Shown piece after piece: positions 2,350 through 63,943 of a DNA stretch of 64,000 nucleotides; positions within the stretch are counted from its first letter, which is position 1; each line of letters starts with the position of its first letter. This DNA comes from an uncultured virus (IMG/VR IMGVR_UViG_3300032323_001173) (taxonomy: Duplodnaviria; Heunggongvirae; Uroviricota; Caudoviricetes): the IMG/VR virus record IMGVR_UViG_3300032323_001173; one strand, given 5' to 3'. The position numbers and the translations under genes were made by a program. The notes beneath the pieces were generated by a model. It was not told where the DNA came from and did no database searches. It was given only the letters and a program-made list of their open reading frames with translations.

Positions 2350-2981
2350 TGACAACGATTGTTGGCATCCAAGGTGACGGCTTTGCCGTGGTGTGTGTTG
2401 ACTCACGTATCTCCACCGTGTTTTCCGACGGTCTTGCTCAAACTGGAACGCTCCGTGAAGGCTCCAGCAAAGTTGCTGTTAACGGCAAATACTTGTTAGG
2501 TGCGGCTGGAGACGTGCGTGCAATCAATATCTTGCACCATGTCTTCCAGCCCCCAGCGGTTCCACCAAACTTGAAAGGTAAGAAACTAGATCAGTTCTTT
2601 ACTGCCAAGTTCATTCCTGCATTGCGTGAATGTTTTGATGCTCAAGGTTATTCAATCCCTGATCTCAATGAGAACAAAGAACACATTGCCGAGCAAGGTT
2701 CTAGCATCCTTGTTGTGGTCAATGGTGTTATCTACATGGTGGACGGCGACTACGCATGGTCGTCTGAAGCCAGCGGTATCTACGCCATCGGTTCTGGTGC
2801 CCACTATGCCCTAGGCGCTTTACAGGTCATGATGAACAAAAAGAAGTGGACAGCCCAGCAGGCTAAGACCAGTGCCCTCAAGGCTCTCAATATTGCGGCT
2901 CGGTTTGACCCTTACACGGGTCCTCCGTACCAGACCTACGTACAAGGTCAAGAAAGCGCCCGAACCCGTAAAACGGTATAA
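2349..2981 (+). CDS. Proteasome beta-subunit/HslV-like Ntn threonine peptidase
   Basis: N-terminal M-TTIVG, DSR, conserved Lys, GAAGD, AIGSG and D-P-Y-TG motifs; TAATG coupling to the upstream gene. Confidence 0.85.
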   Translation: MTTIVGIQGDGFAVVCVDSRISTVFSDGLAQTGTLREGSSKVAVNGKYLLGAAGDVRAINILHHVFQPPAVPPNLKGKKLDQFFTAKFIPALRECFDAQGYSIPDLNENKEHIAEQGSSILVVVNGVIYMVDGDYAWSSEASGIYAIGSGAHYALGALQVMMNKKKWTAQQAKTSALKALNIAARFDPYTGPPYQTYVQGQESARTRKTV

Positions 2982-3008
2982 TCTCTTTGAACCTACTCAA
3001 GGAGACTT

Positions 3009-3290
3009 ATGAATCAAATGAAGACCGCCCACGCAGATGCCGCTATCAAAGGTGCCGCCCTCGGTATCTTGGCATTTGCCGCCGCTAAATACAACCTCTC
3101 ACCTGAACTTGTTGCTTTGGCATTGCCATTCGTTGCTACCGCAATCTCGCTGGTATCAACCAAGATCGGTCCTGCAAACACCACCTTGCTTTTGAAGGTT
3201 GCTGAACAAGCAATTGCTTCTGCTCCTGTTAAGGCAGAACCAGCACCTGTGAAGAAGGCTGTGGCTAAGAAGGCCGCCGCTAAAAAGTAA
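3009..3290 (+). CDS. Membrane protein, two TM helices and a Lys/Ala-rich tail (holin-like)
   Basis: Two hydrophobic segments; AKKAAAKK tail; SD AAGGAG. Confidence 0.55.
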   Translation: MNQMKTAHADAAIKGAALGILAFAAAKYNLSPELVALALPFVATAISLVSTKIGPANTTLLLKVAEQAIASAPVKAEPAPVKKAVAKKAAAKK

Positions 3291-3913
3291 TGGCTCGTCA
3301 AATACCTCACGAAAATGCTGAGGATTGGACATATCCAATAAACCCAGAAACCGTGTTACATAACACGTTAACGGGCACTGGGTACACCGTCAACTTGCAG
3401 ACAGGTAAAACTCCTACTACAGGAACAATGGTGTCCATTCCTGGACATGAAAAGACTGTCCCAACTTCCAGTATTACACCTGATGACATTTCCGAGTTTG
3501 CTACATCTAAAGAACACAAGGATGTACTAAATAAAAGAAATAGCAACTTAGGTACTTGGAATACTGGTGAAGAGGTATTTCTTGACGTATCCCGCAGGTA
3601 CCCCAATACTACAGGGGGCGCAAAAGCGGCACGGTCAGCCGCAATGCGTGGCGATCAATTTGCTATATACAACATTGACCGAGGTTTAACTGAGCGAAAT
3701 GTGGCGGCTCCTAAAGTTCAACAACAGTATTTGCAAGAGAAAAACATTGAACTATCTGAAGACGCAGGTCGGGAATACTTGGAAAGCACATCCCCTGTGG
3801 GGTTGCACGTAACTACGGGATTCCGAACAGCGCCAGATAAGGGAACTCGTGGCAAGCGTAAGGCGGGCACAGGTCAAGGAACTATCGTCTGGACTGGTGA
3901 ACCTAACCAGTAG
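3290..3913 (+). CDS. Hypothetical phage protein
   Basis: 207-aa ORF coupled by TAATG; LGTW...VFLDVS...QFAIYNI pattern seen in phage proteins. Confidence 0.6.
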   Translation: MARQIPHENAEDWTYPINPETVLHNTLTGTGYTVNLQTGKTPTTGTMVSIPGHEKTVPTSSITPDDISEFATSKEHKDVLNKRNSNLGTWNTGEEVFLDVSRRYPNTTGGAKAARSAAMRGDQFAIYNIDRGLTERNVAAPKVQQQYLQEKNIELSEDAGREYLESTSPVGLHVTTGFRTAPDKGTRGKRKAGTGQGTIVWTGEPNQ

Positions 3914-27480: not shown

Positions 27481-27495
27481 CAAATAAGTTTAGCG

Positions 27496-27639
27496 GTTGG
27501 GAGGAGAGCCGTTAACACGGGTGGGGGAGAAAGGAGGGAAAGCCCCCACTCTGTCGTCCTGAGGAGGTCGCCCTCCTCCCAACACTCTAAACACTTTAGC
27601 ACCCGATCAGGAAAGTGCTAAAAGCGCTGGCGAGAGTGT
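27496..27639 (+). ncRNA. Candidate structured RNA/leader upstream of the replication initiator
   Basis: Nested stems 27496-27506/27573-27583, 27521-27527/27543-27549, 27582-27588/27633-27639 and 27595-27602/27615-27622. Confidence 0.5.
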
Positions 27640-27675
27640 AGCATGGCGACCCTATATAACAACCTGAGGAGAAGT

Positions 27676-48128: not shown

Positions 48129-48360
48129 AATGGATTTTGACTCATGGCTTAAAATGGGGTTAGAGAACAAGTGGGTTGGTCCACCAGTGTGCTCAACGCA
48201 CGATGGACTTCCATCAACCGAGGACGAAGACATGGCATGGGACGAGGGCGATGACCCATGTATTCACATCTTGCGTCTTTATGTAGATGATCTTGAAGCA
48301 ATGCTCGTAGAGCAAAACCACAGCCCATCGGTGTGGCGTAAGGCTGGCTACGAAGAGTGA
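48121..48360 (+). CDS. Hypothetical protein
   Basis: CSTHDGLP...DPCIHILRL. Confidence 0.65.
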   Translation: MSEMDFDSWLKMGLENKWVGPPVCSTHDGLPSTEDEDMAWDEGDDPCIHILRLYVDDLEAMLVEQNHSPSVWRKAGYEE

Positions 48361-49793
48361 AGATCTTCTTTGGTGGAGCGGAGAAGGGGACGTATCGCAA
48401 GATGCTCATGGACGCTGGCGTTAAACGCTACGCCATCAACCTGACCCACTTCCCGATCCCCAAGAAGAAAGAACTAGACCTCAGCGTGCTTTACGGGGGC
48501 GGAGAACTCATTGTGTACACATCAGAAAACGATGAGGACACAAATCGCTTTGATCAATTCGTACGAGATCACGCAGATAATATAGATATTGTAATTGGTC
48601 GCCCTGATTACGATGGCGCATGGCTGGGTGAAAAGTACTACCCACTATGGAACGATGAGCAGGATCTAGAGCGCCTAGCGTGGCTGTGTCAGAAGTATGG
48701 TCGGGCGGCGATTAGCGACAAAGCGGTCACAGGACGCAACGTGGGGCGCATTGTATCCATCTCACAACGATGGAGCGCCAAGTTAGTCGGCATTACCTCT
48801 AAACCTGATCTGATTGAGCGTGTCCAATGGGACACTGTTATTGCAGGTTCATGGACAAGCGCTATCCGCTATGGCGAAACACAAGTATGGGATGGTCACG
48901 GGCTACGCCGATACCCAGCACAACAGAAAGAGTCGTCACGCAAAAAGCATCGTGCCGATATCACCCGACTTGGTATTGATTTTGATGCTGTAATGGACGA
49001 CAACGTATCCGCAATCGGTAACCTTGCAATTGTCTCTTGGCAACAATGGGAGACCCACACTTTTGGGGGCTATGACCCTATGAATGACGATGACGAACTA
49101 GAATTCACCGACACCGATAATGGGCAATTAATTGCTATTGACCCCAAAACACATACCCCCACTTTACCCACTTCAGGGGGGTCGCCTATTACTATCAACG
49201 TGCCAAACAAGAGGCACGAAAATGACCGTGTATTACTACCTGTTATGGGTATGGAAACGATCACCTCGTTTGGCTCACAAACCGTTGATAATGAAGGAGA
49301 ATCAATAGAAATTGATCCCGAAAAGGTCAGCGTAATTCGTTACAATGCGAACCCTTTACGACAGTGCAACAATTGCTATTTGAGTAGTCGTTGTCCTTCA
49401 TTTCAAGAAAACACGGAATGCGCATTTAAACTTCCAATTGAGATACGCACAAAGGATCAGTTACAGGCGGCGATGCGTGCCTTGTTAGAGATGCAAGTAG
49501 GGCGTGTGATGTTCGCCCGCTTCGCTGAAGAACTGGAAGGTCAAGGTCTTGACCCAGCCTTGTCTAATGAGATGGATCGTTTGTTTAATCTTATTGACCG
49601 CTTTAAGAACATCTCTGATACTCGTGACACCATTCGTTTGGAGATGGAAGCCCGAGGATCCAGCGGTGTGTTGTCTCGCTTGTTCGGTGCCAAGGCTGGA
49701 GAAACCAATCGCATGCTTGAAGGTGGAGGAATGGGTGCGCAAGCAACCAACGCTATGTACGCAGATGTATTGGATCTATCCGAAGACAATTGA
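48357..49793 (+). CDS. Two-domain protein: degenerate TGT/DpdA-like N-terminus plus Cys4 and helical C-terminus
   Basis: KIFFGG, PLW, SW.S.IRYG.T.VWDG; CNNC...C...C. Confidence 0.5.
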   Translation: MKIFFGGAEKGTYRKMLMDAGVKRYAINLTHFPIPKKKELDLSVLYGGGELIVYTSENDEDTNRFDQFVRDHADNIDIVIGRPDYDGAWLGEKYYPLWNDEQDLERLAWLCQKYGRAAISDKAVTGRNVGRIVSISQRWSAKLVGITSKPDLIERVQWDTVIAGSWTSAIRYGETQVWDGHGLRRYPAQQKESSRKKHRADITRLGIDFDAVMDDNVSAIGNLAIVSWQQWETHTFGGYDPMNDDDELEFTDTDNGQLIAIDPKTHTPTLPTSGGSPITINVPNKRHENDRVLLPVMGMETITSFGSQTVDNEGESIEIDPEKVSVIRYNANPLRQCNNCYLSSRCPSFQENTECAFKLPIEIRTKDQLQAAMRALLEMQVGRVMFARFAEELEGQGLDPALSNEMDRLFNLIDRFKNISDTRDTIRLEMEARGSSGVLSRLFGAKAGETNRMLEGGGMGAQATNAMYADVLDLSEDN

Positions 49794-50593: not shown

Positions 50594-51010
50594 TTGCCTA
50601 ATCATCAAGATGACTGGCGCATTGATGCTCTCTGCAAAGACCGCCACATTGATCTTTGGTACCCACCACTAGATACTGATGTACCAGAGAATTACTATGT
50701 AATTTCTAGAGCAGTATGTCGTCAATGTCCTGTATGGAAAGAGTGTTTAGACGATGGGCTAGAAGAGAAGTGGGGATTGTGGGGCGGACTCACACCGCAA
50801 GAACGCACAGCGCTTACTGTTGAGCATCCGAAGGCAAGTGTACTTCGTGCACATGGCACGTGGACTCGTTACCGACAAGGTTGCAGGTGTACAGAATGTG
50901 TAGACGCTGAGTCAAAAGAGATTAATCAAATAAACATTCAAGAGATTCCTAAGATGGGTACGCAACTGATTGATTTAGAGATGCTTAAGTTCAGGTTGAT
51001 TCAGCCTTAA
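50594..51010 (+). CDS. whiB: WhiB-family transcriptional regulator with a C-terminal HGT..GCRC..C extension
   Basis: W...ALC...C..CPV...CL...GLWGGLT..ER. Confidence 0.9.
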   Translation: MPNHQDDWRIDALCKDRHIDLWYPPLDTDVPENYYVISRAVCRQCPVWKECLDDGLEEKWGLWGGLTPQERTALTVEHPKASVLRAHGTWTRYRQGCRCTECVDAESKEINQINIQEIPKMGTQLIDLEMLKFRLIQP

Positions 51011-51973: not shown

Positions 51974-53043
51974 GGATTGGGATCGTCAGTGGTGATTACC
52001 TTCCTGCACAGAGAGCCTCTGATGGTGTGCACCATTGGGGTGGCTCGGGCTGGGCACGACTTGGTCAATACACAGAATGGTTGGAGCATTTGGGTAAAGA
52101 AGTAGTTGTAGGAACATTGACATGGAAGGAAGATCGTTTCCTTGTTCGTGACCAACACGAAGAACTACAAGAAGTTCACATGGTCATCATGCAACGCCTT
52201 ATGCACGAAACACTTGCCGAACACATCAACAAGGCTCGTTCCATTGGTCAGGTTGTTGTGAATGACCTAGACGATTGGTACTGGGGTCTTGACCCAGCCA
52301 ATGATGCGTTTTTGTCTTCGCACCCAAAGACCAACCCGAAAGAGAACCGAGATCATTACAAGAAGGTGCTCGCATCAAGCAATGTGGTCACTGTATCCAC
52401 GCAGTACCTTGCTGATCGGATCAAGTCGTTCGTGCATTGCCCTATTATCGTGCTGGAGAACACTGTAGACATCGCACGGTTTACTCCGCATACACACACT
52501 GATAGTTCTATTCCTGTAGTTGGTTGGGTGGGAGCCACGAGCCATCGCTCTAGTGACTTAGAGATCATGAAGGGAATCGTCAACCCTTTACTTGCTAATA
52601 ATGAGATTAAGTTTCAGCACAGTGGGCATTACCCAACGTCAGCGTCAGTAGCCAGCAAACTTGGCTTGCATGATGATCAGGTCACCGTGTTAAATGCGGT
52701 GGACGCCAAAGACTACCCATCACTGTTGACCATGGACGTGGGCATCGCACCATTGCGTGACACGCCATTCAATCATGCCAAGAGCGACATCAAGTTGCTG
52801 GAGTACTCAGCCTCAGGCATTCCATGGGTCGGTTCTGCGCTGTCTTCGTATGAGGGGTTGCGTAAGAATTGGGGGATTGGTCGCACTGCGAGTAAACCAT
52901 CGCAGTGGCTCAAGCATCTGAGGGATCTTCGGGATCCAGTCAGGCGAGCAGACGAGGGAGAGGCTTTGAGAGAAGCAGTGCGCTCACGAGACATCAGCCT
53001 CGGAGCACACCGCCTCAACTCACTTATTGAAGATCTTACGTAA
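51970..53043 (+). CDS. GT-B glycosyltransferase
   Basis: DLDD, VTVST..LA, VGWVG..SH, D.GIAPL...FN.AKS.IK.LEYSA.GIP. Confidence 0.85.
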   Translation: MRIGIVSGDYLPAQRASDGVHHWGGSGWARLGQYTEWLEHLGKEVVVGTLTWKEDRFLVRDQHEELQEVHMVIMQRLMHETLAEHINKARSIGQVVVNDLDDWYWGLDPANDAFLSSHPKTNPKENRDHYKKVLASSNVVTVSTQYLADRIKSFVHCPIIVLENTVDIARFTPHTHTDSSIPVVGWVGATSHRSSDLEIMKGIVNPLLANNEIKFQHSGHYPTSASVASKLGLHDDQVTVLNAVDAKDYPSLLTMDVGIAPLRDTPFNHAKSDIKLLEYSASGIPWVGSALSSYEGLRKNWGIGRTASKPSQWLKHLRDLRDPVRRADEGEALREAVRSRDISLGAHRLNSLIEDLT

Positions 53044-53385
53044 ACTAATACGTTCAACCTTGTCCAGCGACTGCATATCCTTGCCACCCCACACGCCCCA
53101 GCGAATGTCGTTCTTGACGGCAAAGCGTAGGCATTGGAATGACACGGGACAGCCTTTGCATATTGCAACGGCTTCCAGTCGCTTCTTTCTTATTTCTTTT
53201 GTGTAACCCGCTTCACCAGTAGCAAAGAAGGTAGTCACGTCTTCGTGACGACATGCTGAATGCGCACGCCATGTACCAACTTCAGGGAATGGCAACGGAT
53301 CCATGATGTCTTTGTTGACAAGTAAACTCCGATGTAGCGGGGGATTTGACTCCCCCGCATCATCGTAGTAATCCCAACGGTTCAT
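53020..53385 (-). CDS. whiB: Second WhiB-family regulator
   Basis: W...SAC...FF...A..ICKGCPV..QCL...GVWGG. Confidence 0.88.
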   Translation of the reverse strand: MNRWDYYDDAGESNPPLHRSLLVNKDIMDPLPFPEVGTWRAHSACRHEDVTTFFATGEAGYTKEIRKKRLEAVAICKGCPVSFQCLRFAVKNDIRWGVWGGKDMQSLDKVERISLRKIFNK

Positions 53386-55786: not shown

Positions 55787-55920
55787 TACTTTGCTCTCCT
55801 TTTGTTTTTGAATGTGTCTACTGCTACTGCGATTAGAAGACCGTAAGCGATCCCCAATCCGAAATACATGAAGCACTCATAAGCGTGCTGACTGATGTGA
55901 ATGGTGTAACCGTTATTCAT
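55786..55920 (-). CDS. Small membrane protein (44 aa, absent from the ORF track)
   Basis: SD AAGGAGG; MNNGY...one TM; TAATG coupling. Confidence 0.5.
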   Translation of the reverse strand: MNNGYTIHISQHAYECFMYFGLGIAYGLLIAVAVDTFKNKRRAK

Positions 55921-55929
55921 GTGCCCTCC

Positions 55930-56136: not shown

Positions 56137-56378
56137 ACTGCGTCTCCCATCCATACACGATCTTCATCGTCACGGCATACGGTGACGCCGTCCAGTGTCT
56201 GCACTTCCTCCACAACCCAGTCAAGTGTTGCTTGACCTGATTGCAATTGATCAATCAATGCCGTGACCACAGCGTTGTAACTGAGGTCGCCCTCGTACAG
56301 TGCCAATGGGTCGTGCGCATTGACTTCTTCTAAGTACACGCCCGTCTGTAGCGAGAGCGTGACATTCCACTTCTTCAT
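56133..56378 (-). CDS. Hypothetical protein
   Basis: SD GAGGAGG. Confidence 0.65.
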   Translation of the reverse strand: MKKWNVTLSLQTGVYLEEVNAHDPLALYEGDLSYNAVVTALIDQLQSGQATLDWVVEEVQTLDGVTVCRDDEDRVWMGDAV

Positions 56379-56414
56379 GATGACCTCCTCAGATCATTGT
56401 TACTTATGGGTGTT

Positions 56415-56501
56415 GCGGGGTTGCTTCACCCCGTGAACACTCCCCAAGGCGGATCAAGGGGAGTGCTCACGGGATGACACCGACATGATCGGTGCCACCG
56501 C
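56415..56501 (-). ncRNA. Intergenic multi-helix RNA element, family B (divergent copy)
   Basis: TGGCACCGA/TCGGTGTCA hairpin followed directly by a long CCCGTGAGCACTCCCC/GGGGAGTGTTCACGGG hairpin. Confidence 0.5.
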
Positions 56502-56514
56502 TCGTGTGAGCCTC

Positions 56515-56766
56515 TCAGGACTCAATTAACGAATCTTCAATCCAATCTAGATCAATGTTGTACAGGTACACAACATGACCCTCGGGAGCGTAGAACTTGA
56601 TGTAGGCGCCCGAGTCGTCATCTTCAAACTGCTCATTGACACTGCCGATGTACTTCATCTTGGACAGTTGCTCCTGCCCGTAGTACTCGTTGGTGTTGAC
56701 GGAGGGGATCAAGAGATCCGCCTCCACCAAGTCCCTGCGGACTACTGGGTAACCACCGAGGATCAC
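56515..56766 (-). CDS. Hypothetical protein
   Basis: GTGA overlap; acidic. Confidence 0.55.
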   Translation of the reverse strand: MILGGYPVVRRDLVEADLLIPSVNTNEYYGQEQLSKMKYIGSVNEQFEDDDSGAYIKFYAPEGHVVYLYNIDLDWIEDSLIES

Positions 56767-56975
56767 GAGAACACGTCCACTTCAAGGATCTTGTTGAGCG
56801 GGATGTCAATCTCACGCTCGTTCTCGTAGGTGTCGTGTGGGCTGTCTGTAGTCCACAATGTCAACTCGGTGTCGCTGATTCGTGAAACGAGTCCTGTGTA
56901 CTCAAATGTCTCCCTCGGAGATATTTGCACGAGCAGTTCTACTTCATCGTCTACTTGCACATTGATGGTTTTCAT
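56763..56975 (-). CDS. Small beta-barrel (SH3/Sm-like) hypothetical protein
   Basis: SD GGAGG; YTGLVSRI...L.L...IDIPL..I.EV. Confidence 0.6.
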   Translation of the reverse strand: MKTINVQVDDEVELLVQISPRETFEYTGLVSRISDTELTLWTTDSPHDTYENEREIDIPLNKILEVDVFS

Positions 56976-57331
56976 TTGTTGCCTCCTTCAAGGTCTAACA
57001 CTGTTTGGTAATAATCTTCATTGCTCATTACTTGCACTTCGTACTTGGTGTTGAAGTCCCCAGTCCATGGGTACTCAGTCACGAAGTAACCGATGCGATT
57101 CACTAGATGACGTCCAGCGAGGATGTATGTGCCTTCCTGCCCGTCCACGTATGTCCACGTGGTGTAGAGCGGTTGCTTGTACACATACTCAACCTCAGCA
57201 CCGTACGTTTCAAACATGATGCCGTTGCCGTCTTCATCTGCCCACGATGCGTCTGCATCTAGGTGATTGACGATGGGCTTGTACTTCTCCTCCCATTCCT
57301 CAACTGACATCTTGATTACTGGCTGTAACAT
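56972..57331 (-). CDS. Conserved phage hypothetical protein
   Basis: SD GAGGAGG; FETYG.E...WT.VDG...G.H.VNRIGYFVTE.PW. Confidence 0.7.
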   Translation of the reverse strand: MLQPVIKMSVEEWEEKYKPIVNHLDADASWADEDGNGIMFETYGAEVEYVYKQPLYTTWTYVDGQEGTYILAGRHLVNRIGYFVTEYPWTGDFNTKYEVQVMSNEDYYQTVLDLEGGNK

Positions 57332-57366
57332 GCGACCTCCTCAGGTCTATAGGGATTAACTAAGTT

Positions 57367-57451
57367 ATCGGGTACTGCGTACCCTCACAACACACAAACA
57401 GAATTTATGTGCTGTGAGAGCACCACGAGCCGTAGCCCGTGATGCCCCGAT
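57367..57451 (-). ncRNA. Intergenic four-way RNA element, family B
   Basis: ATCGG/CCGAT closing stem; GCATCACGGGC-TACG-GCTCGTGGTGC; long hairpin; GTAC-GCA-GTAC. Confidence 0.65.
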
Positions 57452-57714
57452 CAGGCGACATCCTCCCACCATGTCTGTGGCATGTAGAAGTATGCGCCCT
57501 CATGCCAGCCGAATGAGTGGTTGTCAGTAGCGACATTCTCATTCAGCCAATCGGTGGCTACCTGCTCTTGGTACCACGAGTCCTCAATGTCGGTGGGCTG
57601 GCGCCCATCCCAACCAAGTTCTCGTGCGATCCTGCACGCTTCCATGGCGCTGTAGACGCCGTGGTGGTCGTCAACTACCAACCTTGCTCCGTAACCCATT
57701 GTCGCCTTGCTCAT
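57451..57714 (-). CDS. Hypothetical protein
   Basis: SD GGAGG; ATGA overlap. Confidence 0.65.
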   Translation of the reverse strand: MSKATMGYGARLVVDDHHGVYSAMEACRIARELGWDGRQPTDIEDSWYQEQVATDWLNENVATDNHSFGWHEGAYFYMPQTWWEDVA

Positions 57715-57995
57715 TGCTCTACCTCCATGTCAGCGAGCACGAATGGAATCTTGTAGTCAATGTCGTACGACAAGACCACGAAGTCTTCGTTGCCATTGCC
57801 TACGAGCGACTTGAGTTCTTCCTCGCCGTCTTCGCAGTAGAAGAAGACCTCATCGTCACGATTGCCCAGCGAGTCGTACTCGCCGTTCCACTCGTTCTCA
57901 TTCCACGTGCCGAACGAGATGTACACCTCGTCCTCCGCTTGCGTGTCCTTCCATTGGATAATTGCCCACGCACCTATTGGTGTTCCGATTGTCAT
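57711..57995 (-). CDS. Acidic hypothetical protein
   Basis: SD AAGGAG; TAATG coupling. Confidence 0.65.
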   Translation of the reverse strand: MTIGTPIGAWAIIQWKDTQAEDEVYISFGTWNENEWNGEYDSLGNRDDEVFFYCEDGEEELKSLVGNGNEDFVVLSYDIDYKIPFVLADMEVEQ

Positions 57996-58231
57996 TAGAA
58001 CTCTCCTTCTTGAGTGATGTCATAGTTAAGGTAATCCCATGTCAACTGGTTGACACTGCTGTAGCCACCGTTGGCGTCAAACACTGCAACTGCGTTGACC
58101 CACAGTTCCGAGTCTGCCGACAACTCGTTGTTGTCCTTGTCAGTGAACATGTTTGATTCCCACCAAGAGATAGCGATCTCTTCGTCAGGATCAATCCCAC
58201 TTAATAACTTGATTGCTTGACTTACTTTCAT
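57995..58231 (-). CDS. Hypothetical protein
   Basis: SD AAGGAGG; MKVSQAIKLL. Confidence 0.65.
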   Translation of the reverse strand: MKVSQAIKLLSGIDPDEEIAISWWESNMFTDKDNNELSADSELWVNAVAVFDANGGYSSVNQLTWDYLNYDITQEGEF

Positions 58232-58255
58232 GGTTCCCTCCTTACAGGGCTATTT

Positions 58256-58337
58256 GAACATCGGATGATGTCCTGACGGTACACCAGCGGTGTGCCGATG
58301 TACCGTCAGAACACCACGGGCTTGCGCCCGTGATGCA
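58256..58337 (-). ncRNA. Intergenic RNA element, family B
   Basis: GCATCACGGGC-GCAA-GCCCGTGGTGT; CTGACGGTACATCGGC/GCTGGTGTACCGTCAG; small 3' hairpin. Confidence 0.65.
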
Positions 58338-58415
58338 CTGTGAAGCGTCCAGTGAGGACTAGACGCTTCGGATGTCGCTACAGGCGCCGACCATGAAGGC
58401 GCCGAGCGCCAGTGG

Positions 58416-59945
58416 TCAGATGCCGTTGCCGACAATTGCTTCAATGAGCGCCTGAGTGATACTGCCACCCTCGGCTCCCATGTCTTCGCCTTGCCCAGTG
58501 AGAACACTGGAGACGACCTCGTGTTTGCTGTTGAGCAGTGCCCACATGCGATCGTCCAGCAGTGGAAGATCAGGATTGTTGCCCACACCAATCATCCACC
58601 AAGCGAGCACGCTTGATGTCTGACCGATGCGATGCGCACGATCCTCTGCCTGTGTGGCTTCTGCGGGAGTGAATGGGATCTCAGCGAACACCACGTGCGA
58701 TGACGCAGTGAGCGTGAGACCGACACCAGCAGATTGGAATTGCCCGATGAACACTTTGACCTCGGGGTCATTCTGAAATGCATCTACCGATGCCTGCTTG
58801 GCTTCATCATTCATTCCGCCGATGACACGCACCACGCCGTGTGGCTTGAGTGACTCGGTCAACTGTGCGATGACATCCTTGTGATGTGCGAACACGATGA
58901 CCTTCTCACCTTCAGCGACTAGTTGCTCAACGTGATCCACCACGTATGGCACCTTCGCAACACCGAGCAACTTGCGCAGTGCATTGAGCCGTGTGATGGT
59001 CTCAGCCTTGGATGCCTTCTGCCATGCCTCAGCACCGCCGTTGGCAATGATGAAGTCACGGAAGTCATTCTCGGCGTGCATGTATGCGTTGAGATCGCTG
59101 TCGCTGATCTCGGTCGCTACCTGTGCACGGCGCTTGGCAGGCAACTCGGTGAGCACGTCTGATTTGTTACGGCGCACGTAGCACGTGCCTCGCAACTTCT
59201 CATTCAACTCGGTGGTGTTGCTCGCACCGTTGTACACGTAACCCCAGCCATTGTGAATGGGATCGCAGTAACGGAAGCGGAACGCCGACTTGCCACCGAA
59301 CACTCGGTCAAGCCTGCCGAGAATATTCAGCGGGCTGATCAATTCGTTCGGACGATTGACGATGATGGTGCCACTCAAGAGCGTGACGTATCCCTCCTCA
59401 GGGATTGACTTCGCAATGAATGCGATGCCCTTGGTGCGTCCAGCGTTCTCAGTCTTGGCACGGTGTGCCTCGTCAACGATGAGCGCTCCAAACTTGCCAG
59501 CCAACTTGGTTGACCAAGCGTCAATGTTTGAGTCACCGATGATGACGACTGATTCCTTCGGTAGTGCACCGACTTTGTTGCCCGTCACCACAGCCACGTT
59601 GAGCCATGGAGCGAACATCTTGAATGATCGGAGCCAGTTGATGCGAAGCGATGGTGGCACTACTACGAGCACCTTGTGCTTCTCACTGACTGCCTGCACT
59701 GCAACAGCGATACCGCTCGGTGTCTTACCGAGACCCATCTCGTCACCGATGATGACACGCTTCTGCTTCAACGCATAAGCGACACCAGCACGTTGGAATG
59801 GGAACAGCGGAACAGCAAGTTCCACTGGGCATTCGCCGTCATGTGCACTGCTCAGTTCAAGCAACGCAGGGTCAGCAACGATTGCTGGTGGAATGCGATT
59901 CAGTGAACCGAGCAATGTATTTAATTGCTCTAATTGATTACTCAT
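58416..59945 (-). CDS. SNF2/HARP-like helicase
   Basis: DEMGLGKT, VDEAH, LSGT...NRP.EL, GVGLTLT and QAEDRAHRIGQ motifs. Confidence 0.92.
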   Translation of the reverse strand: MSNQLEQLNTLLGSLNRIPPAIVADPALLELSSAHDGECPVELAVPLFPFQRAGVAYALKQKRVIIGDEMGLGKTPSGIAVAVQAVSEKHKVLVVVPPSLRINWLRSFKMFAPWLNVAVVTGNKVGALPKESVVIIGDSNIDAWSTKLAGKFGALIVDEAHRAKTENAGRTKGIAFIAKSIPEEGYVTLLSGTIIVNRPNELISPLNILGRLDRVFGGKSAFRFRYCDPIHNGWGYVYNGASNTTELNEKLRGTCYVRRNKSDVLTELPAKRRAQVATEISDSDLNAYMHAENDFRDFIIANGGAEAWQKASKAETITRLNALRKLLGVAKVPYVVDHVEQLVAEGEKVIVFAHHKDVIAQLTESLKPHGVVRVIGGMNDEAKQASVDAFQNDPEVKVFIGQFQSAGVGLTLTASSHVVFAEIPFTPAEATQAEDRAHRIGQTSSVLAWWMIGVGNNPDLPLLDDRMWALLNSKHEVVSSVLTGQGEDMGAEGGSITQALIEAIVGNGI

Positions 59946-59980
59946 GGTCTGACCTCCTCAGGTCTATTGGAATTATTAAC

Positions 59981-60056
59981 TGCACTTGCGTGCTCACACT
60001 CCACGAGATCGCTCCCATGGAATGTGAGCACGCCACGAGCGTGTGCCCGTGACGTG
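59981..60056 (-). ncRNA. Intergenic RNA element, family B
   Basis: ACGTCACGGGC-ACAC-GCTCGTGGCGT; long hairpin with GCGA loop; GCAC-GCAA-GTGC. Confidence 0.65.
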
Positions 60057-60061
60057 ACCAC

Positions 60062-60778
60062 CTAGAACCTGCTTGCGCAGTCGTTACCGATGCCAGCCTT
60101 GCGTGTTGCTTCATCAGTGAGATGACGACCGCACACACAGCAACGCCCGATCTCTTGACCGTAGAGCGTCATTGCCTGCTTGCGTTCATCCTCACTGAGT
60201 GACGTGATGCGCTTGATTGAATTGACCAAGCGCTCGCCACGCAACTTCTCGTCAGCGTGACCGCCGACCACGATGTACATGCCACGTTGACCCTTGAGGC
60301 TCGCATTGTGGTAGCCCTTATTGGTCTTGATCGCATAGAACACGAGATCATTGGTGCCCGTTGACTGCAACGCATAGAAGCCGTCCTTGACGTCAGCGAA
60401 GAGCGACTGCTCATCAACTGGCTTGGCGATGACTTCGGCTGAGCACTCACCAGCCTTGTGGAATGTCTGCCAGCCACCAGCAGTTTGAACGCTCCAGCCA
60501 TGACCGATCTGCACGGTGTGTCCGCACAGTTGGCATGGCTTGGCGATCTTATTGACGATGGTGCGATCACCCTTAGGCAAGTGCTCGGTGCCCACCCGCT
60601 TGATCTCAATCTTTTTGATTGCATCAATGACGAGCGAAGCATCCTTGGTTGACAATGCATTCACGTTCTGATCTACGAGGTACTGGTCAACCCCAGCCTC
60701 ATCAAGACCGAGTGTGACCGCACGCTCTAAGAGCATCGTGCGAATGAATGCCTGTTGCTTTGGTGTTATTGCTCCCAT
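60062..60778 (-). CDS. DUF6011-domain protein
   Basis: T.KQ..FI..L N-terminus; G.CCVCGR.LTD......GIG.DCA. Confidence 0.8.
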   Translation of the reverse strand: MGAITPKQQAFIRTMLLERAVTLGLDEAGVDQYLVDQNVNALSTKDASLVIDAIKKIEIKRVGTEHLPKGDRTIVNKIAKPCQLCGHTVQIGHGWSVQTAGGWQTFHKAGECSAEVIAKPVDEQSLFADVKDGFYALQSTGTNDLVFYAIKTNKGYHNASLKGQRGMYIVVGGHADEKLRGERLVNSIKRITSLSEDERKQAMTLYGQEIGRCCVCGRHLTDEATRKAGIGNDCASRF

Positions 60779-60807
60779 AAAACCTCCTCAAGTTTCAGTT
60801 AGGGAAT

Positions 60808-60892
60808 GTGAATGGACTTGCGTCCTCGGAATGCACCGATGGGGGAACCGATGCACTCCGAGCACGCCATGGCTTGCGCCATGACTGCCCAC
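60808..60892 (-). ncRNA. Intergenic RNA element, family B
   Basis: GTCATGGC-GCAA-GCCATGGC; CTCGGAGTGCATCGGT/ATCGGTGCATTCCGAG; GGAC-GCAA-GTCC. Confidence 0.62.
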
Positions 60893-60902
60893 TGCTAATT
60901 GC

Positions 60903-61151
60903 TCAAACGTATTTTGATGTGATGTCTGCGATTGCATTTGACAACACCTGCTTAACGTTGCTGTCATCGTGAACGAACAGCGTGAGCGTGTGTTCCAACT
61001 TTGCGTAACCAAACGCCTCTTCACCGACTGGGTAGAAGGTATTGGTGTGAGCCAATTCCTGATACTCAATGACGATGTCTATCGTTTGGAATGTTGGGTC
61101 ATCAGACTTCGCAATGCGAATTCCAGTGACACGGTGGATACTTGCATCCAT
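60903..61151 (-). CDS. Hypothetical protein
   Basis: SD GAGGAGG. Confidence 0.65.
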   Translation of the reverse strand: MDASIHRVTGIRIAKSDDPTFQTIDIVIEYQELAHTNTFYPVGEEAFGYAKLEHTLTLFVHDDSNVKQVLSNAIADITSKYV

Positions 61152-61181
61152 AGTTGACCTCCTCGTGGTCTATTTGGGTTG

Positions 61182-61268
61182 GATCGGGCATTGTAATGCC
61201 CTCAGTACGCACCGACAACGCCGATGCGCACTGAGGGCACCACGGGCGAACCCGTGATGCTCCCGATC
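61182..61268 (-). ncRNA. Intergenic four-way RNA element, family B
   Basis: GATCGGG/CCCGATC; GCATCACGGG-TTCG-CCCGTGGTGC; long hairpin; GCAT-TACA-ATGC. Confidence 0.65.
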
Positions 61269-61270
61269 AC

Positions 61271-61807
61271 TCACACTCGTGATGCGATCTTCTCAATAAT
61301 TAATTGCAGAGTCTCAAGGTTGAGACCCATCAAGTCATCGTTGAGTTTGTTCCATTGCTTGTCAGTAACCGTGGGGCTACTGATGTGTCGGACAAGCGCA
61401 TTCACCTGCTGTTGCTTGGAGTATGTGTTGTCCTTTTTGGCTTGCCAATCAGCCTTTACTTCGGCGTCACGCTGTACCACGTATTCTTCAATGGTCTGAC
61501 CGAAGTCTGCGTGGTGCCACTCAATCTCACGTGGTGGAACCCACGAGCGTGTGTTCAGTGTTACTGAAGGCAAGCGCTCGGGGAACCCCTCGTGACCTTC
61601 ATAACCACTGTTGAATGTCTCGTAACGCACTGTGAATCGCACATCAACACGGGTGCCCGACTTGCGACCCCATTCGTTGTGAGTGTCCACGACCTTCTCC
61701 TCAATCTTGGTGATTGAGGCGTAGTGCGAGTACCGACCACGTCCGCCGTAACGGAACACCGCATTCGGATTCTTGGCAAGTATTTGCTTTATCTCTGATG
61801 TTTTCAT
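61271..61807 (-). CDS. Hypothetical protein
   Basis: SD GAGGAGG; 178 aa. Confidence 0.7.
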   Translation of the reverse strand: MKTSEIKQILAKNPNAVFRYGGRGRYSHYASITKIEEKVVDTHNEWGRKSGTRVDVRFTVRYETFNSGYEGHEGFPERLPSVTLNTRSWVPPREIEWHHADFGQTIEEYVVQRDAEVKADWQAKKDNTYSKQQQVNALVRHISSPTVTDKQWNKLNDDLMGLNLETLQLIIEKIASRV

Positions 61808-61844
61808 GGTGTGGAGCCTCCTCTGCTCCGAGGGCTATTTGCCC

Positions 61845-61887
61845 AGTCCCCAGTACCGATTGAACGGTCACGCCTAAAGCGCTGGGG
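61845..61887 (-). ncRNA. tRNA-elbow-like three-way junction, family A copy 1
   Basis: CCCCAG-CGCT-TTA-GGCG-TG-ACCG-TTCAAT-CGGT-A-CTGGGG-ACT. Confidence 0.72.
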
Positions 61888-61894
61888 GAATTGG

Positions 61895-62185
61895 TTAGTA
61901 GGAACCCCAATTGTCATCATCGGTGACGATGTTTCGCACGACATCGTCAGCGATACCGCACTTGATCAAGAATGCCCTGTTCTCTTCTGCCGTTCGGCAT
62001 TCATTGATCGCACCGCAGGACATGCCGAGTTGATCCGCAATTGACTGCCACAGCATCCACAGAGCGATGTGTGCACGCTCATGATGCCGATGCCACATTG
62101 CCTTGTCACTCTGCGTTGACATTGAATCAAAGCGGGCGTGCTGACAAATTGCCTTTGCAATTGTTTCTTCTATTCCGAATTTCAT
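61895..62185 (-). CDS. Hypothetical protein
   Basis: SD GAGGAGG before ATG 62185. Confidence 0.65.
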   Translation of the reverse strand: MKFGIEETIAKAICQHARFDSMSTQSDKAMWHRHHERAHIALWMLWQSIADQLGMSCGAINECRTAEENRAFLIKCGIADDVVRNIVTDDDNWGSY

Positions 62186-62229
62186 GGTGACCTCCTCGGG
62201 TCTTGTATTCACGACACTCGTGTGTCGCT

Positions 62230-62272
62230 AGTCCCCAGTGCGAATTGAATCGCCACGACCTAGTCGCTGGGG
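62230..62272 (-). ncRNA. tRNA-elbow-like three-way junction, family A copy 2
   Basis: CCCCAG-CGAC-TAG-GTCG-TG-GCGA-TTCAAT-TCGC-A-CTGGGG-ACT. Confidence 0.72.
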
Positions 62273-62277
62273 GAAAC

Positions 62278-62532
62278 TCACTGCGCCTTCTCCTTCGCTT
62301 GCTGTGCAAGTTGGAAGTCAAGGTGACTCACAGCGTCACGGCGGAGTTCATACGCTTCACCGTTAAATGCTCGGTCACCTGTTTCAATGTTGATGATCAG
62401 CCAGTCAACACGGCGAACCTCAGGGCAACCCTTGGTGTGAAACTTCCAACACAATTCGTGGTCACAACAGGATGGGTCAGCCCAGTATTCGTCCTTGATG
62501 ATGGCGTATTTGCTTCCCTTGTATGCCTTCAT
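62278..62532 (-). CDS. Hypothetical protein
   Basis: SD GAGGAGG; CCDH..C..H..GC. Confidence 0.65.
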   Translation of the reverse strand: MKAYKGSKYAIIKDEYWADPSCCDHELCWKFHTKGCPEVRRVDWLIINIETGDRAFNGEAYELRRDAVSHLDFQLAQQAKEKAQ

Positions 62533-62570
62533 GGTGCCTCCTCAGGCAGTTGTAACTGGCGGGTGCCAGT

Positions 62571-62613
62571 AGTCCCCAGTCCCGATTGAACGGGCACGCC
62601 CTAGGCGCTGGGG
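62571..62613 (-). ncRNA. tRNA-elbow-like three-way junction, family A copy 3
   Basis: CCCCAG-CGCC-TAG-GGCG-TG-CCCG-TTCAAT-CGGG-A-CTGGGG-ACT. Confidence 0.72.
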
Positions 62614-62619
62614 TGACGC

Positions 62620-63597
62620 TCAATCTTGAATGACCCGTCCACCACCGTGGGCATCCACGATGGCTTGAGCCTGCTCACGAGTGAGTAAGTCAATTTTCTT
62701 GGTTGACGGCGCCCATGTGGTGCCGTTCCAGTATTTGGTGTCGTATCCGACCTCTTTGGTGGCGTAGAAGCGAGGACGGCGATGCGCACGGGACTTGCCG
62801 TCCGCACGCTGTGCGTATCCGCACACTGGGCAGTTGTGCCAGCGATCACCTCGGATCGTTGGTTGACCACTGCCCTCGCAACGCTCCTGAGCACGCTTCA
62901 CAGCGTTCGCACGAGCCTTCTCACGGGCTTGCTGGAATGCCTCCACGCCCTGCTCGGCAAGTGTCAACGCCACGCTGGCGCTGATCTTGACCTGCTCACG
63001 TGACTCCACAGGAGCGTCAGGGAAGCAGACCGAGCACAGCGCCGATCCGAGATCGGCAACAGCATCCTCGGAACTGGATCCGCTGAGGTAAGGCACGAGC
63101 GCAAAGCCTGTTGGCTCGTGACCCTTATTGCAGGTGGAGCACTGCGTGCTGGAGTGAATGTGCCCGTCCGATGACGTCACGAGGTAGTAGCGACTCCATG
63201 GACGACTGCTGTATTCGGTGTTGCAGTCGCTGACGTCACGTTGTGCGTCCTCCAGTGCGATGCGAGCCTCAGTGAAGCGCTCGGCGTAACTGGTGGGCAG
63301 TGATCCGTACTTGCTGATCACGCCGTCATTGAACATGGCTTCGGCTTTGGCACCCGTCAACTGGATGCCCCGTGCCTCTGCAAACTCGGTTGGCATTGGA
63401 TCCAGTCGGTAGTCAACGACAGCCACGCTGTCACGCTGATAGCGACCGTTGTCCCAACGCAACTCTTTGCCGTAGGCACTGACCAAGGAGTCCGAGGCGT
63501 AGGAGTAGTGAACCATTGCCCGAGACTGGATGAATAAGCGCTCTAGATAGAGCAGGTCGTGCTCTACAGGAGTCAAGGTGGATAGTGAGACGCTCAT
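62620..63597 (-). CDS. Zn-binding hypothetical protein of actinophage type
   Basis: SD AAGGAGG; WSRY.LV...GHIH...CSTC, LCSVCFPDAP and CEGSG...CPVCG. Confidence 0.7.
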   Translation of the reverse strand: MSVSLSTLTPVEHDLLYLERLFIQSRAMVHYSYASDSLVSAYGKELRWDNGRYQRDSVAVVDYRLDPMPTEFAEARGIQLTGAKAEAMFNDGVISKYGSLPTSYAERFTEARIALEDAQRDVSDCNTEYSSRPWSRYYLVTSSDGHIHSSTQCSTCNKGHEPTGFALVPYLSGSSSEDAVADLGSALCSVCFPDAPVESREQVKISASVALTLAEQGVEAFQQAREKARANAVKRAQERCEGSGQPTIRGDRWHNCPVCGYAQRADGKSRAHRRPRFYATKEVGYDTKYWNGTTWAPSTKKIDLLTREQAQAIVDAHGGGRVIQD

Positions 63598-63635
63598 GGT
63601 GAGCCTCCTTTGGATGAACTGGCTGTGTGCCAGTG

Positions 63636-63729
63636 GAGCGTGTTTGACGCTCATTCAGGACTGGAGCAGGGGGAATTCTCCAGCCCTCAATGAGCGCCAC
63701 GAGCCATCCGAAGATTGACCCGTGACGCT
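63636..63729 (-). ncRNA. Intergenic RNA element, family B
   Basis: AGCGTCACGGGTC...GGCTCGTGGCGCT; long hairpin; AGCGT/ACGCT. Confidence 0.6.
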
Positions 63730-63924
63730 GAGGAATAGGTGCCCTGAAGTCAGCGAACGGTGTGTGCCGTTGAGTAATGCGCCGTGGGGGACTGTTGTTC
63801 AATTCCCCCGTGGCGGGCGTGCATGGATCCGTTGAAGCCATCTCTGCGAGGCACGAGGTCAGCCGATGTGAAGTCGGGTACGTGCCACATGCATGCGTGC
63901 ATTTTTGCCGAAGCATTCGGGCGC

Positions 63925-63943
63925 TCTTCAGTTGTCAAGGAAC
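63925..63943 (-). promoter_or_regulatory. boxA-like antitermination element
   Basis: Minus strand GTTCCTTGACAACTGAAGA resembles the rrn-leader boxA; upstream of the whole minus-strand arm. Confidence 0.5.

Follow-up and report, generated by a model that had tools for sequence, protein, structure and literature searches.

The DNA analyzed here is a stretch of 64,000 nucleotides (nt) from an uncultured virus of the Caudoviricetes (IMG/VR record IMGVR_UViG_3300032323_001173), referred to below as the window, and its minus strand carries an operon whose genes are separated by structured RNA elements forming two families, here called A and B. By its gene content, which includes portal, capsid, tail sheath and tube, baseplate proteins, DnaB, primase, a family A DNA polymerase and RecA, the stretch looks like most of a tailed phage genome. 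A Pfam scan identified two WhiB-family genes, at 53020-53385 (minus strand) and 50594-51010 (plus strand), together with a DUF6011 protein; WhiB-type factors and DUF6011 are typical of actinobacteria and their phages. Twenty of the 21 metagenome runs listed (13 studies; freshwater and lake) contain part of the stretch. There is no cultured model for this phage, since a DNA similarity search against 50,697 deposited phage records gave no match and the helicase is at most 36% identical to the helicases of cultured phages.

Rightward genes extend up to 53043, and a leftward operon runs from about 63940 to 53020, where the minus-strand WhiB gene is its final gene. In the closest relative (L070) the genes upstream of the leader are oppositely oriented, and the operon therefore begins at the leader. 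Ten long non-coding gaps interrupt the minus-strand genes from 63940 to 56376, namely a 5' leader and nine intergenic gaps of 87-184 nt among the genes numbered g1 to g14 (Table 1), while the remaining four junctions of this part are overlapping stop and start codons (57995, 57711-57714, 56972-56975 and 56763-56766). A recurring order had been proposed from the letters of the DNA alone (the sequence-only reading), and the same order was read in each gap: a stop codon is followed by a structured element, a short spacer rich in A and U, a small hairpin that contains the Shine-Dalgarno (SD) sequence, and ATG. The ten structured elements of that proposal were also recovered, as three copies of family A, five of family B, an element in the g13/g14 gap and the leader, the last two with sets of hairpins that are related to the others but not the same. 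Sigma-70 promoter-like sites inside the operon occur at chance level (7 found, 7.4 expected), and the data are consistent with one long early transcript.

Family A consists of a three-way junction of 40 nt and, behind it, a small hairpin termed H3. Its closing stem, P1, has 6 base pairs (bp), the three outer ones being C-G throughout. P1 runs directly into P2 (4 bp; the last base of its 3-nt loop is a purine), and P2 is connected by a UG linker to P3 (3-4 bp, loop UUCAAU), from which one or two A lead back into P1; the junctions are 0, 2 and 1 nt long. On its 3' side P1 is followed by AC(U/A) and then by H3, which has at least 4 bp in 56 of 85 family A contexts, the others being mostly 3-bp stems capped by GAAA; its mean energy is -7.0 kcal/mol, compared with -1.7 for shuffles. 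A stop codon stands 5-10 nt ahead of P1 in 71 of the 85 contexts. The family A pattern matched three times in the stretch and not once in 100 shuffles, and over the whole 64 kb the family A model (R1) gave only three hits (70-73 bits), each of them on the minus strand.

Related loci were collected through the helicase (27 loci, 249 kb, both strands searched), and many more through patterns. All 76 model hits of family A in the helicase loci fall on the coding strand. Across 49 distinct sequences 99.6% of the cells are paired and 9 of 14 pairs are compensatory, with a covariation score of 0.588 (0.154 in shuffles) that was reached by 0 of 500 shuffles, a count that is not a probability, the sequences being akin to one another. 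Sliding the partners by one column lowers pairing to 38-47%, and a wider set of 72 distinct sequences gave 99.3% paired cells, again with compensatory changes at 9 of 14 pairs. The bases that stay unpaired are conserved in the 49 distinct copies as well, namely the GUG linker, the UUCAAU loop, the junction A and the flanking C and AC. Relative to 100 dinucleotide shuffles, the three family A gaps fold with z-scores of only -1.6 to -2.3 and show no strand asymmetry in energy; for family A, and for the leader, it is covariation and strand-specific occurrence, rather than energy, that provide the support.

Family A is present in 119 IMG/VR stretches (80 of them listed), which are uncultured freshwater phage contigs. 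In contrast, a pattern scan of 185,579 prokaryote species genomes returned a single chance-like hit, in a metagenome-assembled genome of the Acidobacteriota, which bears no resemblance to the element. No Rfam family matched the elements: at the gathering score Rfam 15 had no match in the window and none in 12 related loci (141 kb), and at E values up to 10 nothing between 56000 and 64000 fell over family A and only chance-level hits fell over family B. Two further ideas were dropped. A pseudoknot between the UUCAAU loop and an upstream AUUGA would involve a motif found only in some copies, within tandem stop codons, and stop-codon readthrough would soon meet in-frame stops after family A copy 2.

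Family B is a three-way junction of about 90 nt, made of an outer stem (4-7 bp, often including the stop codon), a capped hairpin P2 (6-9 bp; GNRA or UNCG cap in 64 of 72 cases) and an adjacent long arm, P3. Of 80 distinct copies, 25 have an uninterrupted P3 helix of 20-22 bp and 39 have one of 14-16 bp; in three of the window copies it measures 21 bp. The family B model (R2) gave five full-length hits in the window (49.6-90.6 bits), all on the minus strand. The 131 best hits overall are full-length and all on the coding strand, whereas opposite-strand hits reach at most 32.6 bits and mostly cover the long hairpin only. The six family B-type gaps fold with z-scores of -5.9 to -9.4, compared with +1.4 to -3.4 for ten coding controls, and they are 13-21 kcal/mol more stable when read as the coding (minus) strand than as the opposite one; each has 4-7 G-U pairs. 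Among 80 distinct sequences the proportion of paired cells is 97.4%, and compensatory changes occur at 21 of 26 pairs. None of 500 shuffles reaches any of five covariation measures, a count that, for akin sequences, is again not a probability. The earlier observation that the stems vary in sequence and yet stay paired thus holds in relatives for both families, and the case made there for RNA rather than DNA structure is strengthened by the strand-specific hits, the G-U pairs, the GNRA and UNCG tetraloops and the covariation. We also noted a CAU/GUG step (C-G, A-U, U-G) about 5-7 bp below the P3 loop (columns 59-61 with 101-103 of alignment A7), which is invariant in 80 of 80 distinct copies. 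P2 begins with the same step, which may be a recognition box for a double-strand-specific protein.

The hairpin ahead of the start codon has the form N2 N1 CCU [GAGG] AGG N1' N2', with half of the SD in the loop and half in the stem. With 5 bp and a GAGG loop it is found in nine of the ten gaps, in agreement with the count of the sequence-only reading, the exception being the leader with its weak 3-bp version. The flanks of the shared motif, CCUGAGGAGG, covary: among 46 distinct flank combinations one flanking pair is maintained in all 46 and the other in 39, where fractions of 0.71 and 0.42 are expected. The motif is nearly invariant over nine genes, and the hairpin is restricted to genes that follow a long gap. 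Family A and H3 of the wider clade are followed by an ordinary weak SD with no hairpin, so that the SD hairpin is a clade-specific addition. A further SD hairpin, GCCUUUAAGGAGGGC, lies at 55905-55923 on the minus strand (ATG 55920) and has no long structured gap.

The sequence-only reading had translation of all early units switched together by a GGA-binding factor. T4 RegB cuts GGAG in early SDs, best when the GGA is unpaired (PMC3014915), and the GAGG loop would suit a RegB-like enzyme; a comparison of 94 proteins with Pfam, however, recognized no RegB, CsrA, RNase III or other RNA-binding family, which leaves the proposed factor unsupported. A broader version, in which a trans-acting protein, or an RNA from 27493-27588, binds all the SD hairpins as a global translational switch, seems to us improbable; it may coexist with RNA processing. 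The near invariance of the motif across nine genes speaks for it, as does the only further exact occurrence of the core motif within the window, at 27558-27567, which lies inside a structured element kept in six related loci with compensatory changes. The minus strand of 27493-27588 reads the exact complement of GUCCUGAGGAGGUC, and in three sequence-level cases a G-U keeps the outer stem paired on the minus strand where the plus strand has A-C. However, one constant G-U favors the plus strand, any SD has a trivial complement, the Pfam comparison offers no binding protein, and family A does without the SD hairpin in the wider clade. The element at 27493-27588 occupies a divergent gap between a leftward gene starting at 27483 and a rightward helix-turn-helix gene starting at 27643 or 27676. 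Its plus strand carries an orphan SD hairpin, GUCCUGAGGAGGUC, with no start codon behind it, as well as a hairpin loop, GAGAAAGGAGGGAAA, while its minus strand is the exact complement of the early SD hairpin and places CCCUCCUUUCU, which resembles the 3' end of 16S rRNA, in a 15-nt loop. Four pairs are compensatory in the six related loci.

A relative whose helicase is 64% identical to that of the window (L091) carries seven hammerhead-like elements in the gaps upstream of the helicase (1296-3671, plus strand). Each is placed between a stop codon and the CCUGAGGAGG hairpin with its ATG, with a 4-8-nt spacer, and has the layout NGAC-GAAAC-[hairpin]-GUC-[hairpin]-CUGANGA-GUCN', which is that of a type II hammerhead. 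All hammerhead core bases (CUGANGA, GAAA, GUC) are invariant, and stems I-III are paired in 105 of 105 cells, with compensatory changes at 8 of 15 pairs. These hammerhead-like elements are candidate type II hammerhead ribozymes. They occupy the variable upstream part of the operon, where the window has family A, and family B occurs further down, as in the window. In addition, the element ahead of one orthologous gene (68% identity over 100 amino acids, E 3e-50) differs between relatives: a hammerhead in L091, family A and H3 in L001, and family B in L018. The three kinds of element share a common topology of a closing stem beside the stop codon and two hairpins. The hammerhead layout without this SD hairpin was found in at least 138 IMG/VR stretches; of 147 copies, 134 have a stop triplet at most 12 nt upstream and 85 have an SD and start at most 75 nt downstream. 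Since hammerheads stand in the same slot, we read families A and B as hammerhead replacements that separate cistrons at the RNA level. A natural substitution series of hammerhead, family A and family B before one orthologous gene makes the purpose of clustered phage hammerheads, and their replacement, directly testable at the bench. In L091, CUGANGA can alternatively pair with a following GUC-N-UCAG as a hairpin, and N7 and the last base of stem II change together (U and A, or C and G), so that active and inactive folds both seem to be kept. The hammerhead-like elements of this locus may therefore be conformational switches.

The window elements lack the hammerhead core (CUGANGA, GAAA, NUH), and self-cleavage is therefore not expected from known chemistry; no hammerhead hit was obtained in the window at the gathering score, or between 56000 and 64000 at E values up to 10. 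It is quite unlikely, in our estimation, that family A, or with still lower probability family B, is a small ribozyme of a new self-cleaving kind that took the hammerhead's place in this lineage, and we are equally doubtful of the wider proposal that family A inherited the cutting job of the hammerhead either as a new 40-nt self-cleaving class or as a hammerhead-derived fold cut by a dedicated host RNase. Family A does share slot and topology with the type II hammerhead, it has no Rfam match even at E values up to 10, and its unpaired bases are strongly conserved in the 49 distinct copies, which come from helicase-anchored loci. The search patterns and the model, however, impose part of this invariance of loop and linker, and the junction offers only about three nucleotides for a catalytic pocket. 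Family A also has no hammerhead, twister, pistol or hatchet core, and the subtypes of family B are without a common core. If a ribozyme of this kind were nevertheless present, the slot between stop codon, three-way junction and SD would be a general hunting ground for new catalytic RNAs.

Because relatives carry hammerheads at the same spots, we propose that the modules mark the cut sites of one long message. With a probability of roughly 0.55, they are RNA-cleavage and end-protection punctuation of the polycistronic early message and also serve as joints between gene cassettes. The structures with their covariation, strand specificity and rules of placement, the slot shared with hammerheads and the mosaic breakpoints at the modules are observed, and that the RNA is cut, by which type of enzyme, and that its pieces are stabilized is what we infer. 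A module directly behind a stop codon would direct an endonucleolytic cut, after which the upstream piece would end in a stable capped hairpin and the downstream piece would begin with folded RNA and a very strong, half-sequestered SD, its 5' end being protected and its translation standardized. The helix length of family B and its separate capped P2 point to an RNase III-type reading, in which family B would most likely be a substrate for a host enzyme of that type, cut in P3, with the GNRA- or UNCG-capped P2 as 3' protector of the upstream piece. Family A with H3 would be a functional stand-in for the type II hammerhead of the relatives, cut by some host RNase, possibly in the A-rich single-stranded spacer or at the 5' edge of P1, and the 5-10 nt between stop codon and P1 would let the fold persist beside a terminating ribosome. 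The sequence-only reading had the early transcript processed into stabilized units. In kind this stands, given the strand-specific covarying RNA and the hammerhead-like elements in the slot; as for the processing itself, no RNA ends were readable.

Several points weigh against this proposal. No RNA end was seen, the RNA run consisting of contigs, which cannot show ends. The equivalence of the slot could reflect modular exchange of any spacer rather than a shared function. No enzyme can be named for family A, because it has no helix of RNase III length, no tRNA-like score and modest z-scores. Bacterial RNase III prefers roughly two helical turns, and the 14-16-bp helix that is all the uninterrupted P3 offers in 39 of 80 family B copies is shorter. 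No RNase gene was recognized in the phage (94 proteins compared with Pfam), and the elements of L091 score below the Rfam thresholds (28.5 against 37; 30.9 against 48.5). Finally, the alignments of both families were fitted to models and hence lean toward the modeled structure, and part of the family A set was fetched by patterns that fix the loop and the junction and linker bases. The modules might instead be uncut insulators that provide a standard ribosome-site context and block Rho or exonucleases, with translation set by the SD hairpin. The covariation of the SD hairpin and its confinement to genes behind long gaps agree with such a role, as do the start of the structures just beyond the expected footprint of a terminating ribosome (5-10 nt) and the fact that no RNA ends are known. 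Insulation, however, leaves unexplained why relatives have a self-cleaving type of ribozyme in the same place and why family B has a long, nearly perfect helix, and we consider it unlikely.

Punctuation by cutting has known parallels. In T7, T3 and SP82, RNase III processing hairpins lie between the early genes of a host-transcribed operon; after the cut the upstream piece retains a hairpin as its 3' end, and the downstream piece is stabilized by a strong polypurine ribosome site. Family B resembles these sites in combining a 14-22-bp helix with a separate capped hairpin. It differs in being a three-way junction closed by a stem that bears the stop codon, and family A has no long helix. An SD-like 5' stabilizer of SP82 RNA is reported to act in B. 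subtilis (Hue et al. 1995, as cited in PMC7509114), and the mycobacterial furA-katG message is cut in a single-stranded stretch, with a polypurine SD-like sequence stabilizing the downstream mRNA (PMC2358910). According to Perreault et al. 2011 (PMC3088659), clustered hammerheads flank prophage and phage genes, three arrays cleaved in vitro, and clusters cut polycistronic RNAs of about 2 kb in vitro; the generation of gene-length mRNAs from long phage transcripts was proposed. The elements described here are likewise small three-way-junction RNAs between cistrons, several per operon and beside unrelated genes, but they have no hammerhead core. Plant mitochondrial t-elements are folded signals at cistron borders for the endonucleolytic formation of mRNA 5' and 3' ends (Forner et al. 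2007, PMC1920247). The likeness to t-elements and tRNA punctuation lies in the folded elements at cistron borders, whereas t-elements are tRNA-like and cut by RNase P and Z, and family A has a loop of 6 rather than 7 nt and stems of 6 and 4 bp. The earlier suggestion of a tRNA-like fold processed by RNase P or Z did not hold for family A, nor could it be placed among the t-elements: ARAGORN found 0 genes and Rfam no tRNA or tmRNA hit at E values up to 10.

Start-site repeats are also known from actinobacterial phages. In Cluster K mycobacteriophages the SAS, a 13-bp motif (GGGATAGGAGCCC) containing an SD, precedes gene starts in 11-19 copies per genome; it is found at a subset of non-structural genes in a single orientation and its function is given as unknown, and about half of the copies are preceded by ESAS, imperfect inverted repeats with a variable spacer and a 17-bp consensus (Pope et al. 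2011, PMC3203893). The likeness is one of architecture only, that is, an SD motif at starts with upstream repeats in actinobacterial phages. The motif here is CCUGAGGAGG rather than GGGATAGGAGCCC, which excludes membership; set against the 13-bp motif, the sequence reads NNCCUGAGGAGGN'N'. The upstream elements are covarying three-way junctions and not a 17-bp repeat, and SAS and ESAS have no known equivalence with hammerheads. The statement of the sequence-only reading that the combination was not recognizable from any described phage is nevertheless too strong, as the hammerhead clusters and SAS/ESAS are close precedents. Structured RNA punctuation of phage operons and start-associated SD motifs in actinophages are already known; the two RNA families, their substitution for hammerheads and their combination with a covarying SD hairpin are new. 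A literature search on the motif strings and on intergenic structured repeats of freshwater actinobacterial phages returned nothing describing these elements, and families A and B stand outside Rfam despite strong covariation support. The SAS/ESAS type of start-site repeat thereby gains a concrete hypothesis at the RNA level.

The modules also coincide with borders of homology. L070 and the window are homologous across the leader up to the g1 start codon (63594). Over g1-g3 they share only one family A module, and homology returns at the first base of family A copy 3 (61888). Among the 27 loci g1 occurs in one, g2 in none and g3 in four, and identity to L070 rises from 55% (g5) to 99% (g6) across a single family B gap. 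With breakpoints at the modules, these mark, and probably mediate, cassette exchange; as they are shared between otherwise unrelated genes, the modules of about 90 nt would act as homologous joints for swapping gene cassettes, which bears on the origin of phage mosaicism. They also resemble natural counterparts of the ribozyme-plus-hairpin insulators of synthetic biology. It is in our view very improbable that they are instead DNA-level recombination sites (folded single-strand or homologous joints, similar to integron attC) with a secondary RNA role. Besides the breakpoints and the mosaic gene content, this would fit the presence of elements behind each promoterless open reading frame (ORF) in a single orientation, and contigs from DNA runs that join across modules (59966 to 63924, and 61260 to 62528). 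The short sides of these joints are 20-24 nt, however, below 30 nt, and may stem from other strains. Moreover, no integrase or other site-specific recombinase, and RecA only, was found among the 94 proteins compared with Pfam, which also argues against membership of the integron attC sites, and GNRA and UNCG tetraloops, SD hairpins and the hammerheads in the slot are RNA features and devices.

Table 1. Coordinates of the operon head, gaps, structured elements and SD hairpins in the window.
Feature	Position	Strand	Details
TTGACA, -35-like hexamer at operon head	63933..63938	-	Sequence reading
5' leader gap	63940-63598	-	Minus-strand reading and folding
Structured 5' leader	63598..63909	-	z = -4.3
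Family B-like leader module	63647..63724	-	UUCG-capped hairpin 63724-63698; long hairpin 63697-63647
H3-type hairpin ahead of g1 ATG (63597)	63618..63634	-	Same sequence class as H3 of family A copy 1
Gap g1/g2	62619-62533	-	Folding; holds family A
Family A copy 1 (three-way junction)	62571..62616	-	R1 70.2 bits; stop UGA 62622-62620
H3 of family A copy 1	62555..62570	-	Folding
SD hairpin UGCCUGAGGAGGCA	62535..62548	-	ATG 62532
Gap g2/g3	62277-62186	-	Folding; holds family A
Family A copy 2	62230..62275	-	R1 73.4 bits
H3 of family A copy 2	62211..62228	-	Folding
SD hairpin GACCCGAGGAGGUC	62189..62202	-	ATG 62185
Gap g3/g4	61894-61808	-	Folding; holds family A
Family A copy 3	61845..61890	-	R1 71.3 bits
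H3 of family A copy 3	61832..61844	-	Folding
SD hairpin GGAGCAGAGGAGGCUCC	61813..61829	-	ATG 61807
Gap g4/g5	61270-61152	-	Folding; holds family B
Family B copy 1	61177..61270	-	R2 90.6 bits; outer stem GAUCGGG/CCCGAUC
Family B copy 1 arms	P2 61256-61241, P3 61240-61196	-	Folding; P2 with UUCG loop, P3 21 bp
SD hairpin	61156..61170	-	ATG 61151
Gap g5/g6	60902-60779	-	Folding; holds family B
Family B copy 2	60805..60898	-	R2 53.2 bits; P2 60883-60868 (GCAA loop), P3 60862-60825
SD hairpin extending to first base of start codon	60778..60797	-	ATG 60778-60776
Gap g6/g7	60061-59946	-	Folding; holds family B
Family B copy 3	59972..60065	-	R2 49.6 bits; P2 60051-60034, P3 60033-59988 (21 bp)
SD hairpin GACCUGAGGAGGUC	59951..59964	-	ATG 59945 (SNF2-type helicase)
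Gap g7/g8	58415-58232	-	Folding; composite with family B
Extra hairpins in composite post-helicase gap	58403-58383, 58369-58342	-	Folding; gap z = -9.4
Family B copy 4	58346-58253	-	R2 52.8 bits; composite post-helicase gap 58232..58415
SD hairpin of post-helicase gap	58249-58236	-	ATG 58231
Gap g10/g11	57450-57332	-	Folding; holds family B
Family B copy 5	57360..57455	-	R2 87 bits; stop UGA 57453-57451 within outer stem
Family B copy 5 arms	P2 57441-57424, P3 57423-57379	-	Folding; P3 21 bp
SD hairpin GACCUGAGGAGGUC	57334..57347	-	ATG 57331
Gap g13/g14	56514-56379	-	Folding; neither family A nor B
g13/g14 element, neither A nor B	56379..56524	-	z = -6.6; hairpins 56499-56473, 56471-56432
Hairpin with AGUCCUGAGAGGCU (56522-56509), g13 stop codon in loop	~56524-56500	-	Resembles PyrR binding loop
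SD hairpin of g13/g14 gap	56397-56380	-	ATG 56378

At the operon head, CCTTGACAA or CCTTGAAAA is retained in the relatives L070, L073, L083 and L086. No -10 matches the TTGACA at 63933..63938, and its role as a promoter is therefore putative. Other relatives have a different hairpin behind the same TTGACAA, and a 23-nt leader probe matches only the two closest relatives, which are the sole sharers of the 5' half of the leader. The family B-like leader module is conserved at 80-86% in 25 loci, and its counterparts in relatives are weak R2 hits (23-29 bits). For the leader, the fold of the opposite strand is slightly the more stable (-128.1 against -120.6), and no strand preference is seen. A boxA had been claimed for this region, and with it antitermination of the early transcript. 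Using an rrn-type consensus with up to 3 mismatches, we found none between 63597 and 64000 and only a chance number in the window (31 found, 23 expected), which leaves both claims unsupported; the boxA-like CGCUCAUUGA (about 63696-63687) is one arm of the covarying long hairpin.

The RNA data consist of assembled contigs from one metatranscriptome and from one doubtful RNA run, and such contigs show no ends, strand or level. The metatranscriptome contigs show that an RNA library contains ORF pieces and the leader; parts that no contig covers carry no information. A 167-nt contig of 100% identity covers 63743-63909 of the leader at a depth of 53, compared with 2-9 for the ORF pieces of the same metatranscriptome, a weak hint that leader RNA accumulates. 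The break at 63743 coincides with a border between lineage-specific and shared sequence and is uninformative as an RNA end, and a contig end at 57478 is joined to an adapter and unusable. From this depth difference, and from the stable hairpins behind stop codons, it could be argued that the modules are terminators or attenuators without U-tracts which grade transcription along the operon, an explanation to which we give hardly any credence. Contig depth is a poor measure, none of the ten elements is followed by a U-tract, and three-way junctions with conserved loops are unnecessary for termination. Terminator-like sites in the operon occur at chance level (7 found, 8.7 expected) and none falls on a module, and the modules therefore do not belong to the intrinsic terminators, which are defined by a hairpin with a U-tract.

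The element of the g13/g14 gap has a character of its own. Its first hairpin was matched by RF00515 (the PyrR site) with 37.1 bits, below the gathering score of 54 (E 0.023) and in the binding-loop part only. AGUCCUGAGAGGCU is invariant in the window and eight distinct related sequences, while its flanks vary. The hairpin may act as a PyrR decoy or sensor, or the likeness may be coincidental and due to coding constraint. Elsewhere in the window, the protein encoded at 48357-49793 (plus strand) matches a PHROG family annotated as queuine tRNA-ribosyltransferase (DpdA-like), which hints at 7-deazaguanine modification of the phage DNA.

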